Source: a candidate division WWE3 bacterium RIFCSPHIGHO2_01_FULL_40_23 (GTDB taxonomy: Bacteria; Patescibacteriota; WWE3; UBA101185; 2-01-FULL-41-18). Taken from it: 64,000 nt of DNA. Below are positions 36,931 through 40,255 of this stretch, piece after piece; position 1 is the first letter of the stretch; every line of letters starts with the position of its first letter. Made by a program: the position numbers and the translations under genes. The stretch lies in NCBI GenBank assembly GCA_001772615.1, contig MEUZ01000003.1, positions 109,698-173,697 of the forward strand, read 5' to 3'. The notes under the pieces were generated by a model. The model saw only the letters and a list, made by a program, of their open reading frames with translations, searched no databases and was not told the DNA's origin.

Positions 36931-37616
36931 GAGTAGCCATAAATTATAACATTATCCGAATTAGTTTTTCCCGCGACAATAAGAGATCTCACTTCCGAAA
37001 AATATTCCGAGACATTTTCAATGAAGTTATTTACATCATCCTGATGGTGCTTTAAATAAATCCTATTAAACACAGCTAAGCCGTTTGGGATAAGAAGCCT
37101 TTTAATTCCTGAAAAAAAACTTCCCGAATTTCCAAGTTCAGGATAAACTTCTCCAACAAAAATATTTGTGATAACGCAGTCAAATTCGTTCGGGGAAAGA
37201 CCAAACTCCTCTGGGCTTGTAACAACTCTTAAGGCATCATCAGTGATAATTCTATGGTTTGGTATAGAACCTACGTCAAAATACTTTCTGGCTATTTCAA
37301 CCATAACCGAATCAAACTCAACGCTGACAATGGAAACACCTTTGTGTCTTTCGGACAGAATCCAAGGTATAGCGCCTCCCCCAAGCCCAAGAAGTAAAAC
37401 ATGACTCGGTTCTCCTAAAGACTCGGTTATTACATCAACAATCCTTCCCCAATACATTCTCCCAGCAAGGGGAGAGCCGCGGTTAACCGATTGTGTAACT
37501 CCGTCAGCAATAAGCCTCCTTGTCTTGCCCTTTTCCAAAACCTTGATTTTACCGTTTAAAGGAGATGTAGTCTCAAAAACCACCTTGGGAGGAGTAACAT
37601 CGGAAAAGACAGTCAT
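36927..37616 (-). CDS. Spermidine-synthase-like (PABS fold) methyltransferase-family protein.
   Basis: The sequence contains VLLLGLGGGAIPWIL...VEFDSVMVEIARKYF. Confidence 0.55.
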   Translation of the reverse strand: MTVFSDVTPPKVVFETTSPLNGKIKVLEKGKTRRLIADGVTQSVNRGSPLAGRMYWGRIVDVITESLGEPSHVLLLGLGGGAIPWILSERHKGVSIVSVEFDSVMVEIARKYFDVGSIPNHRIITDDALRVVTSPEEFGLSPNEFDCVITNIFVGEVYPELGNSGSFFSGIKRLLIPNGLAVFNRIYLKHHQDDVNNFIENVSEYFSEVRSLIVAGKTNSDNVIIYGYS

Positions 37617-38950
37617 CAGGATATTTCTTTCTTACCCATCAGTTTTTGCAACGCTTCAGGCACTTTTATAGTACCATCCTCTTTCTGGTAATTGTCAAGG
37701 ATAGAAATAATCATTCTACCCATAGCGCAACCCGTGTCGTTTACAGTATGGGCGTATCGGGTACTTCCTCCATCCTTAAATCTAATGTTTAATCTTCTTG
37801 CCTGAAAATCGGTGGCATTTGTATCAGTCATTACTTCCATAAACTCCCTTTGGGAAGGAAGCCAAACCTCAGCATCATATTGCTTATGAGAAGCAAGGTA
37901 GCCCGCATCGGCACTGCATTTATTTAAAACTCTGTATGGAAGCTGTAACTGCTGCAAAAACCACTCATTTATTTCCCTCAAGTATTCCATAGTTTCATCA
38001 GAGGTTTCAGGAATAGTCACAACATCCATCTCAAGCTTATCAAACTGATGAACTCTTTTTATTCCGTAAACATCCTTCCCCCACGACCCTACTTCACTTC
38101 TAAAACATGATGTTAAAGCAAACATTTTATATGGAAGCTCCATCTTTGAAACTGTTCTATCCATAAAATAGGCAAAGAGAGGGGGCTCGGACGATCCTAC
38201 AAGATAAAGATTTTCTCTATTTTCAACATTGTCGCTTTCAATTTTATATACCTGGTCCCTTCCTTCAGGAAAATGACTGGTGCCGACTAAAACCCTATCC
38301 TTCACAAGAAGGGGTACCATCATTGGAACAAAACCTTCGGAAACTAACTTTTTCTTAAGAAGTGAGGCCAAAGCATCCTGCAGCAAAACCGCGTCATTTT
38401 TCAGATAGCAAAACCTGCTTCCCGACGTGATGGCACTTTGCTCAACATCTATCATGTCATGCATCTTTCCAAGCTCAATGTGATCCTTCATCTTAAAATT
38501 TGCTTCAGGCATGTATTTAGCTGCGCTATTTCCTTTTCCAAGTTTTTTCTTTGGAAGATATCCATCTAAGGGCGTCCACACAGCTAATTCCACATTATCG
38601 TCAGGACCGTCGCCTATTGGCATATTGGAACAGGGAATATTGGGAAGATATAAAAGCTTCTCATTTAATTTCCCTTCAAGAATTTTCAGATCATTTTCAA
38701 ATTTCTTTAATTCTATCTTCAACCTCAAAGCTTCCTTAATTAATTCCGCCCTCTCTTTAGCAACCTTTGTTTTTGAAACCTGTTCAGAGAGGCTGTTTCT
38801 TAAAGCTCTATGAGACTCAACGTGCGAAAGCATCTCAAGTCTTTGGTCATCAAGCTTTAAAATCTCATCCACATCCGTCTTTGCCTTCCTTACCCTAACT
38901 GCATATTTTACCTTGTCGGGAAAAGCTCTGATAAATTTAATATCAAGCAT
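37616..38950 (-). CDS. serS: Seryl-tRNA synthetase.
   Basis: The N-terminal coiled-coil arm is followed by a class II core (FRSEVGSWGKDVYGIKRVHQF, GRMIISILDNYQKEDGTIKVPEAL). Confidence 0.9.
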   Translation of the reverse strand: MLDIKFIRAFPDKVKYAVRVRKAKTDVDEILKLDDQRLEMLSHVESHRALRNSLSEQVSKTKVAKERAELIKEALRLKIELKKFENDLKILEGKLNEKLLYLPNIPCSNMPIGDGPDDNVELAVWTPLDGYLPKKKLGKGNSAAKYMPEANFKMKDHIELGKMHDMIDVEQSAITSGSRFCYLKNDAVLLQDALASLLKKKLVSEGFVPMMVPLLVKDRVLVGTSHFPEGRDQVYKIESDNVENRENLYLVGSSEPPLFAYFMDRTVSKMELPYKMFALTSCFRSEVGSWGKDVYGIKRVHQFDKLEMDVVTIPETSDETMEYLREINEWFLQQLQLPYRVLNKCSADAGYLASHKQYDAEVWLPSQREFMEVMTDTNATDFQARRLNIRFKDGGSTRYAHTVNDTGCAMGRMIISILDNYQKEDGTIKVPEALQKLMGKKEIS

Positions 38951-38955
38951 ATAGC

Positions 38956-39627
38956 TTACCTTTCAGCGTTAACATATATATTACAAAAGTATTCAAGGAG
39001 TCCTAAAAGATTGATGGATTTATAATAATACCTGCACGTCTTTCTAACAACTTCCCTCTCTTTAACACCCCCAAAGCCTATAAACATATCACATACCTGT
39101 CCGGCTCTAACGTCAGTCATCCCATCTCCAACAAAAACGGTCGGGCCGCTCACCGAAATTTCTTTCAACACTAACTCCTTGCCAAAATCCTCCGCTAAAA
39201 TAGACCCTTTGGCAATTCTCTTAAAGCTACCGCTTTTATCAAACTCAAGATCCACCCCATAAACATTTTCTCTTTTAACACCCGCGTAATCCGCAAAAAT
39301 ATCAATAGCCTCCTTTAAACCTCCGCTTGCTATGTAAACCTCTCCTCCAAGACTTCCAATTATTCCAAAAAGAGTTTTTACGCCAGGAAGTTTTGACTCA
39401 ATATATTTTTCCCCAAGAAGCTCCAAATCTTCTTTCTTAGGCTTAATCAGTGAAAGCCTTTCTTGCAGAGAATCCTTAAAGGGGGTCTCGCCTGTCATTC
39501 CCGATTCCGTGATCTTTCTTATCTTCATACTTATTTCCTCACTACAGGATAAACTGTCCAACCCCTCTATTGAGACAAGAGTGCTGTCGCAATCAAAAAC
39601 GAAATTTTTAAAGCTTAAGGTAGTCAT
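38956..39627 (-). CDS. HAD-superfamily phosphatase (phosphoserine-phosphatase-like).
   Basis: Motif I is FDCDSTL. The sequence also contains GDGMTDV. The gene sits upstream of serS in the same operon. Confidence 0.65.
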   Translation of the reverse strand: MTTLSFKNFVFDCDSTLVSIEGLDSLSCSEEISMKIRKITESGMTGETPFKDSLQERLSLIKPKKEDLELLGEKYIESKLPGVKTLFGIIGSLGGEVYIASGGLKEAIDIFADYAGVKRENVYGVDLEFDKSGSFKRIAKGSILAEDFGKELVLKEISVSGPTVFVGDGMTDVRAGQVCDMFIGFGGVKEREVVRKTCRYYYKSINLLGLLEYFCNIYVNAER

Positions 39628-39812
39628 ATTTCCCCATAAAAAAACCCTCCTGTATCGGAGGGGTCAAATGACGGTACCACCCTTTGTTTAACTTTATTCA
39701 CAGCTGTAACGGGCATCCCCGGAATCAGTTAGCTATCCAAAACTTTCTGGTTTTGGATGGGATCTGATCAGCTAAAGCAGTGGAAAACCTGCTCTTAACG
39801 CTTTTATATGTT
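39628..39812 (-). promoter_or_regulatory. T-box riboswitch leader, probably responding to tRNA-Ser. It controls the HAD-phosphatase/serS operon.
   Basis: The minus-strand RNA contains AAAGGGUGGUACCGUCAUUUGACCCCUCCGAUACAGGAGGGUUUUUUU. This comprises a T-box consensus (AGGGUGGUACCG) and an antiterminator with a 7-nt UGGUACC bulge. The terminator that overlaps it is CCCUCC-N6-GGAGGG followed by U7, ending 17 nt before the ATG. Stem-I candidates lie upstream, and UCA/UCC Ser codons appear in a large internal loop. Confidence 0.6.
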
Positions 39813-39818
39813 CCAATC

Positions 39819-39848
39819 TTTATACATGAAAAACCTAAAATCTGTCAA
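39819..39848 (-). promoter_or_regulatory. Sigma70-type promoter for the T-box leader: TTGACA, an 18-nt spacer, then TATAAA.
   Basis: The minus strand reads TTGACAgattttaggtttttcatgTATAAAgattgg. Confidence 0.45.
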
Positions 39849-39924
39849 GTTGATGCATAACAAGTAAAGGGATAAAATACCTCCATCAAAATCACGGCCT
39901 AATGGCCAAAAAAAGGAGACAGAT

Positions 39925-40200
39925 ATGAGTCAGGAAATCGTGTTTGTTGACGTAGTCAGGCTGGAGGGCCACAGAACACCGGTTGCGGTACTCTCCAAAG
40001 TTGGTGCGAGTGGGGTACAACTCTACCTTAAAAATGGCTCAACATTCGGTCTTACTCTCACACCAAACATCAATGAAGCCCTTCCTATGGACGTGAGTCC
40101 TCGATCGCGTGATGTGATCACTACTCTGGCCAGGGAACGTTTCGGTGTAGAGGAAGATATGGTCAGATTCAACAATTGGCCTGAATTCCCCGCCGATTAA
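39925..40200 (+). CDS. Small hypothetical protein of 91 aa in a GC-richer segment.
   Basis: A strong SD sequence (aaaaaGGAGacagatATG) precedes the start. A hairpin terminator lies immediately downstream. The gene is isolated on the plus strand among minus-strand genes. Confidence 0.5.
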   Translation: MSQEIVFVDVVRLEGHRTPVAVLSKVGASGVQLYLKNGSTFGLTLTPNINEALPMDVSPRSRDVITTLARERFGVEEDMVRFNNWPEFPAD

Positions 40201-40218: not shown

Positions 40219-40255
40219 CAGCCTGTTACCCAAAGTGACAGGCTGATTTTCTTCT
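40219..40255. terminator. Rho-independent terminator hairpin between convergent genes.
   Basis: CAGCCUGU, an 11-nt loop, then ACAGGCUG, followed by AUUUUCUUCUC. A T-rich tract is also present on the opposite strand. Confidence 0.5.

Follow-up and report, generated by a model that had tools for sequence, protein, structure and literature searches.

What is encoded in the 297-nt intergenic gap (positions 39628-39924) upstream of a HAD-family phosphatase gene and the adjoining serS gene in candidate division WWE3 (Patescibacteria)? The window, by which we mean the whole 64,000-nt stretch of DNA analyzed here, comes from candidate division WWE3 bacterium RIFCSPHIGHO2_01_FULL_40_23, whose seryl-tRNA synthetase (SerS), OGC50311.1, is identical to the protein encoded by the window's serS. 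An earlier note, made from the DNA alone, had proposed that the minus strand of this gap carries a T-box riboswitch with its own promoter, and comparison with orthologous loci supports the core of that proposal: a serine T-box leader, its promoter, an antiterminator/terminator switch and control of the serB-like/serS operon. We conclude that the leader is very probably a T-box riboswitch and, in a fuller and hardly less probable statement of the same reading, that a reduced tRNA-Ser-sensing T-box attenuates transcription of the serB-like/serS operon in this WWE3 bacterium. The element, promoter included, spans 39848-39638 on the minus strand and would yield a leader of ~170 nt; a 191-nt leader sequence folds better than its shuffled versions (z = -3.0).

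T-Box Sequence and Terminator

The window contains a single copy of the T-box motif AGGGUGGUACCG (39683-39672), and 100 shuffles contain none; the slightly longer AGGGUGGUACCGUC (39683-39670) agrees with the conserved T-box sequence AGGGUGGNACCGCG at 12 of 14 positions. The motif opens a predicted antiterminator (39683-39659) in which an A1 helix, AGGG/CCCU (39683-39680 with 39662-39659), and an A2 helix, GUC/GAC (39672-39670 with 39665-39663), flank a 7-nt bulge, UGGUACC (39679-39673). An intrinsic terminator, CCCUCC-GAUACA-GGAGGG (39662-39645), also found independently by a terminator scan, is followed by a U7 tract (39644-39638), and its stem ends 17 nt before the annotated phosphatase ATG at 39627. 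The 5' arm of this hairpin, CCCUCC, includes the entire 3' strand of A1, so that antiterminator and terminator are mutually exclusive; calculated for each alone, their folding energies are -4.8 and -12.3 kcal/mol, respectively, and the stronger terminator would therefore make termination the default state. The T-box consensus, the helices around the UGGUACC bulge (the GGG/CCC of the earlier note lying within AGGG/CCCU) and the overlapping terminator with its U7 tract and 17-nt distance to the start codon are thus all present as first described. A GUUAAA/UUUGAC pairing in the minimum-free-energy fold was discarded as incidental, being kept neither in the orthologous leaders L160 and L164 nor in the aspS leader L116.

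Orthologous Leaders and Their Link to Canonical T-Boxes

Seven orthologous serS leaders share the window's order of elements (L001/L132, L156, L157, L159, L160, L164 and L052), six of them from WWE3-clade relatives and one, L052, from a distant bacterium. Among 5.8 billion proteins the window's phosphatase has one close homologue (P0002, 45% identity), and its locus L001, in a Patescibacteria metagenome-assembled genome from Hainich groundwater, is syntenic and carries a leader 77-82% identical to the window's, with the same elements. The homologues P0003 and P0004 were set aside: they are non-syntenic and stand in serA or unrelated contexts without a T-box. SerS homologues at 63-72% identity, among them P0031, which NCBI names WWE3, yielded further loci; in five (L156, L157, L159, L160 and L164) the leader lies directly 5' of serS with no phosphatase gene, and in L161 the leader region is incomplete at the locus edge, its terminator end still visible. 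A G+C-rich hairpin with U6-7 stands at the equivalent place in all orthologues. In L156, L159, L160, L164 and L052 roughly 25-85 nt separate it from the serS start downstream, a distance that argues for transcription attenuation as the common mode.

A covariance model built from the orthologous leader sequences, R1, matches the window once (39637-39807, 129.7 bits). Over 80 serS loci of GTDB species it found one further leader, L052, which lies 5' of a serS with 41% identity to the window's in an unclassified bacterium; another match, in L079 (19 bits) within the coding sequence of an alpha/beta-hydrolase, is spurious. The HAD gene is found in none of these 80 loci, and the regular expression GGGTGGNACC gave no leader among them; it is too strict for T-boxes of the L156 type.

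The earlier note had proposed to check its claim with the Rfam T-box model RF00230. This model finds nothing in the window, neither at the gathering score (93 bits) nor with permissive filters up to E ≤ 10; the scan's weak matches to snoRNA and Phe-leader models are chance hits on the terminator. The relatives that it does reach score between 20.8 and 57.9 bits, against the gathering threshold of 93 bits: L052 stands at 57.9 bits (E 2.7e-10), L159 at 26.1, L001 at 23.2 and the aspS leader L166 at 20.8, and the leaders L116, L125, L110 and L086 are missed as well. The alignment of L052 is in register through K-turn, truncated Stem I, Stem II, IIA/F-box, Stem III and T-box, with Stem I collapsed such that 76 model positions are replaced by 10 nt; in L052 and L159 together the replacement measures 9-10 nt, and in L159 the Stem III positions are deleted in addition. 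This places L052 between the WWE3 leaders and canonical T-boxes and connects the two, the window leader being homologous to L052 through R1.

These comparisons also bear on how the proposal was to be judged. The earlier note had held that without a significant Rfam match, or without Stem I elements such as the specifier loop and the distal AG bulge/loop, only a terminator hairpin would be left. The match and the AG bulge/loop are indeed both missing, and the comparison nevertheless rules against a lone terminator: as we read the orthologues, these are the wrong yardsticks for a reduced T-box class that does without such elements by design.

Stem I and the Specifier

The 5' end of the leader folds into an ultrashort Stem I, GAGCAG/CUGCUU with the apical loop (G)UUUUCCA (39794-39775), above a basal helix, AGC/GCU (39802-39800 with 39772-39770), at the position of the K-turn C-stem. 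The basal helix shows compensatory changes, to UGC...GCA in L164 and to GGC...GCC in L052. Stem I itself has 6-7 bp, and a manual count across eight serS leaders finds standard pairs in 48 of 48 cells, with three to five pair types at each of three positions; this count is independent of alignment A4, which was fitted to the covariance model. On A4, five of seven pairs change on both sides, and the covariation score of 0.338 (0.145 when shuffled) is reached by none of 500 shuffles, while slid controls with partners shifted by 1-3 columns score at most 0.153. RNAalifold predicts both Stem I and Stem IIA from the same alignment.

The apical loops of the eight serS leaders read (G)UUUUCCA, CUUUCCA, UUUUCCG or UUUUCC, with UUUCC invariant and an A or G after UCC in seven of eight (A at 39781 in the window). 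Serine has six codons, so that its triplets often arise by chance, and a triplet tells something only where it is conserved at one fixed place in the structure. Of the Ser codons, UCC in the apical loop alone stays constant across the serS leaders; by this comparison the apical loop of the ultrashort Stem I presents the specifier, UCC (39784-39782). The prediction of a Ser specifier in the earlier note was hence right about the amino acid and wrong about the site: the UCA and UCC triplets that it placed in a large internal loop of a candidate Stem I belong to a stem (39769-39723) that is in fact Stem II, and they are not conserved in orthologues.

As for the K-turn that the earlier note had proposed to look for in Stem I, beside the basal helix the window pairs AA or GA opposite UA, which is not the K-turn consensus. 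Among the relatives the basal helix of L052 flanks a consensus K-turn (a 3-nt bulge, then tandem GA/GA) and L159 has GA/GA after a 4-nt bulge; leaders other than these two are variants, L160 and L164 showing GA/UA. The distal Stem I platform, made of the AG bulge and distal loop with their interdigitated T-loops, is absent, and Stem I ends in its 7-8-nt apical loop. A long-range helix around Stem II and IIA, AGCUG/CAGCU, which RNAfold suggested for L116, was ruled out because the GCU-to-GCA change in L164 is compensated in the 5' AGC and not in the downstream CAGCU, and because L001 would have an A/A mismatch.

At the variable position of the UGGN bulge the window and L052 carry U, and the other six of the eight serS leaders carry C. 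Bacterial tRNA-Ser in general, including that of Escherichia coli, carries the discriminator G73, with which both C and U can pair; the (actinobacterial) tRNA-Ser genes found in other fetched loci also have G73.

Stem II, Stem IIA and the Linker

Stem II (39769-39723) follows Stem I; GAUCAG pairs with CUGAUU at its base, above which lie an internal loop of 5x6 nt (AUCCC / AGCUAA) and an upper hairpin whose length is very variable among the leaders. The base of the stem undergoes compensatory changes from A-U to G-C in L001, from C-G to U-A in L159 and from C-G to G-C in L116; the 3' side conserves UAA, and in L159 and L052 RF00230 assigns the corresponding segment to Stem II. Next comes the Stem IIA hairpin CGGG-GAUG-CCCG with the F-box CCGUUA (39721-39707), which is invariant in nine of nine leaders in the form CGGG-NNNG-CCCG, followed by U(U/A)A(C/U)AGC(U/A)GU in the F-box region, and which falls on the IIA/F-box positions of RF00230 in L001, L052 and L159. 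For a IIB pseudoknot, the leaders compared offer no consistent pairing beyond 2-3 bp and no covariation.

The linker to the T-box (39706-39684) is predicted to be single-stranded, with a conserved CAGCUGU, the purine-rich AAAGUUAAA (39695-39687) and no Stem III hairpin. This stretch from Stem IIA to the T-box measures 24-27 nt, again without a hairpin, in all WWE3-clade leaders, unlike L052, which has Stem III; the purine-rich flanks of Stem III are retained as AAAGU...AAA, with AAGUG in L160 and L164. The comparison shows the predicted fold to run, in order, through a short Stem I, Stem II, IIA/F-box, a ~25-nt purine-rich linker without Stem III, and the antiterminator/terminator.

Promoter, Operon and Neighboring Genes

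The sigma70-like promoter that had been noted on the minus strand is present: a -35 box, TTGACA (39848-39843), and a -10 box, TATAAA (39824-39819), separated by an 18-nt spacer. Transcription would start near 39812, with 13 nt between the -10 box and the AAAAGC that opens the leader. TTGAC(A/T) is equally placed 5' of the leaders L156, L157, L159, L160, L164, L052, L116 and L166, and the serS leaders open ~10 nt past a TTGAC(A/T)...TA-rich promoter, except for L001, where the nearest promoter-like site lies ~76 nt upstream. A consensus promoter scan did not list the window leader's promoter, because TATAAA lacks the final T that the scan requires. The promoter sequences show that the leader RNA should begin at a sigma70-like promoter of its own.

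The first regulated gene (38956-39627, minus strand) encodes a HAD-IB, SerB-like phosphatase, which scores 86.8 bits with TIGR00338 (serB), under that profile's cut-off, and 49.9 bits with TIGR01488 (HAD-IB), over it; the second, serS (37616-38950, minus strand), matches TIGR00414 at 380 bits. These profile matches confirm the order of a serB-like phosphatase and serS given in the earlier note. The phosphatase is probably a phosphoserine phosphatase, as its best family match is serB, albeit below the cut-off, and a homologue with 40% identity directly follows serA elsewhere. In that locus (L153, 921-3139) the HAD phosphatase gene overlaps the stop codon of serA, which encodes a 3-phosphoglycerate dehydrogenase with an ACT domain, an arrangement in favor of this HAD-IB subfamily acting as phosphoserine phosphatases. 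Given such a role, the operon would raise serine supply and seryl-tRNA charging together. Downstream of serS the minus-strand operon continues with genes for a spermidine-synthase-like methyltransferase, uppP and secA.

On the other side, the 297-nt gap is divergent because the upstream gene, an unannotated 91-aa open reading frame (39925-40200), lies on the plus strand; its product has no match in Pfam or NCBIfam. Just 5' of it (39895-39924) lie a small hairpin, GGCC-AUUA-GGCC, and a tract rich in A that includes GGAGA, and 3' of it (40219-40245) is an 11-bp hairpin that could serve as a bidirectional terminator and could insulate the T-box promoter from the upstream minus-strand operon.

Other Compact Leader Families

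A separate compact T-box family, brought up by the metagenome scan described below, comprises nine distinct leaders with a Thr codon in the apical loop YYACCAA and the bulge sequence UGGA. In seven of the nine the next gene is thrS, or a small GNAT gene with thrS behind it, and the remaining two (L096 and L117) lie too near the contig end for a downstream gene to be seen. The locus set includes a tRNA-Thr whose discriminator is U73; its assignment to the Dojkabacteria locus L050 is taken from output order only. Codon, discriminator base and downstream synthetase thus appear to agree in two independent families, serS and thrS.

The metagenome scan, for AAAGTTAAA N3-5 GGGTGGNACCG, returned 68 loci (L085-L152). 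At least 27 of them hold leaders 5' of thrS, in many cases with a small gene for a GNAT acetyltransferase in between, and the thrS leaders whose sequence was read carry UGGA; one of the associated threonyl-tRNA synthetases is from Candidatus Magasanikbacteria. Two thrS subgroups can be told apart, one with the Thr codon in the apical 7-nt loop YYACCAA and the other with ACC-A in a putative short internal loop, ...AUGGUACCAC...; sampled members of the two (L125 and L110) have no RF00230 match at E ≤ 1. A very short leader, UCUCC-CCGGCAC-GGAGA-CUACCGUAG...AAAGUUAAA...GGGUGGAACCGUC, recurs in L087, L088, L101, L102, L107, L111, L121, L129, L131, L133 and L151, with GGC-A in its loop and ACC-G in the following segment, and precedes a NUDIX hydrolase gene where the reading frame is readable (L088, L121, L129, L131 and L151). 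Extremely AT-rich leaders with AAAGUUAAAAA(A)UUGGGUGGAACCGUUC occur in L086, L092, L098, L100, L108, L122, L124 and L142; that of L086 precedes an apparently interrupted glyS fragment, in which the reading frame ends after 82 aa and matches the N terminus of GlyRS, and the interruption may reflect an alternative genetic code or a frameshift.

Paralogous leaders of the same architecture also precede aspS in WWE3 operons for a non-discriminating AspRS (L116, 1104-1267, and L166, 1272-1454). Their bulges read UGGC in L116 and UGGU in L166, the same C/U alternation as in the serS leaders, and tRNA-Asp likewise has G73. Both share an identical 9-nt apical loop, AUUGUGGCC, whose GGC could pair with the anticodon GUC only via a G.U pair. 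The second gene of the aspS operon encodes a D-Ala-D-Ala carboxypeptidase; trpS had been considered for this position in L116, as an explanation of UGG in the loop, and was rejected.

Proposed Mechanism and Alternative Readings

In light of these comparisons and of the T-box mechanism described previously (PMC7583486, PMC11297988), we propose that the stronger terminator would form by default and stop transcription before the phosphatase gene, charged tRNA-Ser being unable to lock the antiterminator. When seryl-tRNA charging drops, the anticodon of uncharged tRNA-Ser(GGA) would pair with the UCC specifier and its free NCCA end with the UGGU bulge, where the U opposite discriminator G73 would form a wobble pair; the two contacts would stabilize the weak antiterminator, such that RNA polymerase reads through into serB-like/serS.

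The leader could instead act mainly on translation, as a Shine-Dalgarno sequestrator of the actinobacterial ileS kind in which the hairpin chiefly hides GGAGGG from ribosomes. According to PMC7583486, every ultrashort Stem I T-box described so far is indeed translational, and in both the window and L001 the 3' arm of the hairpin, GGAGG(G), is followed by the U tract and an AUG. In L001 (3990-4090) this AUG is the in-frame start of the phosphatase gene; its equivalent in the window, directly 3' of U7, opens a 9-codon reading frame, MGKYDYLKL and a stop (39637-39608), with the terminator-arm GGAGGG as a possible Shine-Dalgarno sequence, but this frame is not that of the annotated phosphatase gene, whose start (39627) it overlaps. 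The short frame may be explained by translational coupling, by a shifted start or by an indel in the assembly. Against a mainly translational switch, the hairpin is a textbook intrinsic terminator, G+C-rich and with U6-7 in every orthologue, and in L156, L159, L160, L164 and L052 serS has its own ribosome-binding site at a distance (roughly 25-85 nt) that makes sequestration impossible. We therefore regard sequestration as the main mode as unlikely, and favor transcription attenuation; because GGAGG precedes the first AUG in both the window and L001, the attenuator may gate translation there as a possible secondary effect.

A specifier placed elsewhere would have the long stem as Stem I and the codon in its internal loop (39763-39754), as UCA or UCC, or in AGCUAA, as AGC. 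Canonical specifier loops are internal loops, and the window does offer two UCC triplets in AUCCCAUCC and a UCA in GAUCAG; with six Ser codons, however, some nine chance occurrences are expected per 100 nt. The triplets are not kept in L001, L156, L159, L160 and L164, which have unrelated sequence or no such loop, the UCA/UCG lies within a covarying helix, triplets on the 3' side would specify Ala, Thr or Leu depending on the species, and RF00230 aligns the long stem as Stem II in L159 and L052. An internal-loop specifier is accordingly the least probable of the alternatives weighed here. Little more probable, and still very improbable, is that the leader is a decayed relic or a constitutive attenuator, T-box-like in sequence with no response to tRNA. 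The window's lack of an elbow platform, Stem III, consensus K-turn and S-turn would suit a relic, as would the loss of the leader in L158 and L163 and the degenerate T-box of L156/L157, where antiterminator and terminator hardly overlap; yet Stem I, the UCC loop, IIA/F-box, T-box and terminator are kept, with compensatory changes, down to 41% SerS identity, the window copy has a perfect AGGGUGGUACCG and a complete overlap of A1 and terminator, and the reduced layout recurs in thrS and aspS leaders.

Several observations weigh against a tRNA-Ser-sensing attenuator all the same. In addition to the Rfam null result, which extends to E ≤ 10, both the tRNA-elbow platform and Stem III are absent; the former is described as a general requirement of transcriptional T-boxes, where it would allow fast tRNA capture, and the latter is held to be an indispensable part of the aminoacylation sensor (PMC7583486). 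The G.A/A.G pairs of the K-turn are unrecognizable in the window, though relatives have them, and the S-turn GAA of Stem II, present in most relatives, is missing; both could represent drift or a tolerated variant. The bulge reads UGGU, whereas a perfect pair with G73 would call for UGGC, and a tRNA scan of the window and the fetched WWE3 loci found no tRNA-Ser genes in them. Where the serS leaders have UCC, the aspS loop AUUGUGGCC contains no GAC, GAU or AAC, so that a rule by which the 3' triplet of the apical loop is the specifier is not proven general. Finally, the close relatives L158 (with a 36-nt gap) and L163 have no leader, and the closest serS relatives at 72% identity, L156 (1870-2014) and L157 (1832-1976), carry a degenerate T-box, UUGG-UUGGCACC-UUUC...GAAA-CCA, with a terminator, ACUCGGA/UCCGAGU, that overlaps the antiterminator by only about one base; the switch of these two may be decaying or differently wired, and the element would be dispensable or decaying in parts of the clade.

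Significance

The earlier note had also claimed a T-box in a lineage where T-boxes are not routinely annotated, and the comparative evidence agrees: as judged from conserved and covarying sequence, it shows that T-box regulators exist in compact form in the Candidate Phyla Radiation (CPR) and are overlooked by the standard Rfam model. Whether they constitute a distinct minimal transcriptional class in Patescibacteria (WWE3, Magasanikbacteria and others), invisible to Rfam, with an apical specifier and with neither elbow platform nor Stem III, and regulating serS, thrS, aspS and probably glyS, we consider an even call. Full-text literature searches on T-boxes in Patescibacteria, CPR or Saccharibacteria returned nothing linking them, and a prior description elsewhere is possible.

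If such a class exists, two elements held necessary for cotranscriptional tRNA sensing would be dispensable in nature, and the class would operate in organisms hitherto believed to have next to no riboswitch-type regulation; the ultrasmall CPR bacteria, about whose control of genes very little is known, would monitor tRNA charging directly. T-boxes are a paradigm of RNA-RNA recognition and a proposed antibiotic target, and a terminator-ending family without platform and Stem III would offer a minimal scaffold for structural tests of those requirements. Annotation of the Rfam or TBDB type overlooks leaders of this kind, for which a dedicated covariance model such as R1 is needed.

Relation to Known Systems

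The window leader shares much with canonical class I T-boxes (RF00230; Bacillus subtilis tyrS/glyQS, Firmicutes serS): the T-box sequence, the 7-nt UGGNACC bulge between A1 and A2, a competing terminator with its U tract, Stem II followed by IIA with the F-box CCGUUA, and a position upstream of an aminoacyl-tRNA synthetase gene. Its relatives combine a UCC specifier with UGGC, as does the canonical serS T-box in L149 (...UUUCCG... and UGGC). Unlike canonical T-boxes, the window's Stem I is a hairpin of 6-7 bp with the codon at its apex and without the AG bulge/distal-loop platform, Stem III is missing, K-turn and S-turn are non-consensus, and the Rfam model is blind to the leader.

An apical specifier on a short Stem I is in itself a documented arrangement, described in PMC7583486, which cites Sherwood 2015 for it. 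It is found in the ultrashort Stem I T-boxes of actinobacterial ileS (Mycobacterium tuberculosis and Nocardia farcinica; "class II" in TBDB, whose model is built on Actinobacteria only), which, as portrayed in PMC7583486 and PMC11297988, resemble the window leader in both respects; the two also have in common the lack of an elbow platform and the presence of Stem II and IIA/F-box, which presumably compensate for it. The actinobacterial class, however, is translational, acting via Shine-Dalgarno sequestration, and keeps Stem III, often enlarged, whereas the window leader has an intrinsic terminator and no Stem III, belongs to WWE3/Patescibacteria, and would respond to serine tRNA in front of serB-like and serS. 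With the glycine glyQS T-boxes, lastly, it shares a compact, transcriptional design that dispenses with a standard domain, and there the WWE3 leader is the reverse: glyQS T-boxes do without Stem II and IIA/B and keep a long Stem I with its platform as well as Stem III, the very parts that the WWE3 leader has shortened or shed.

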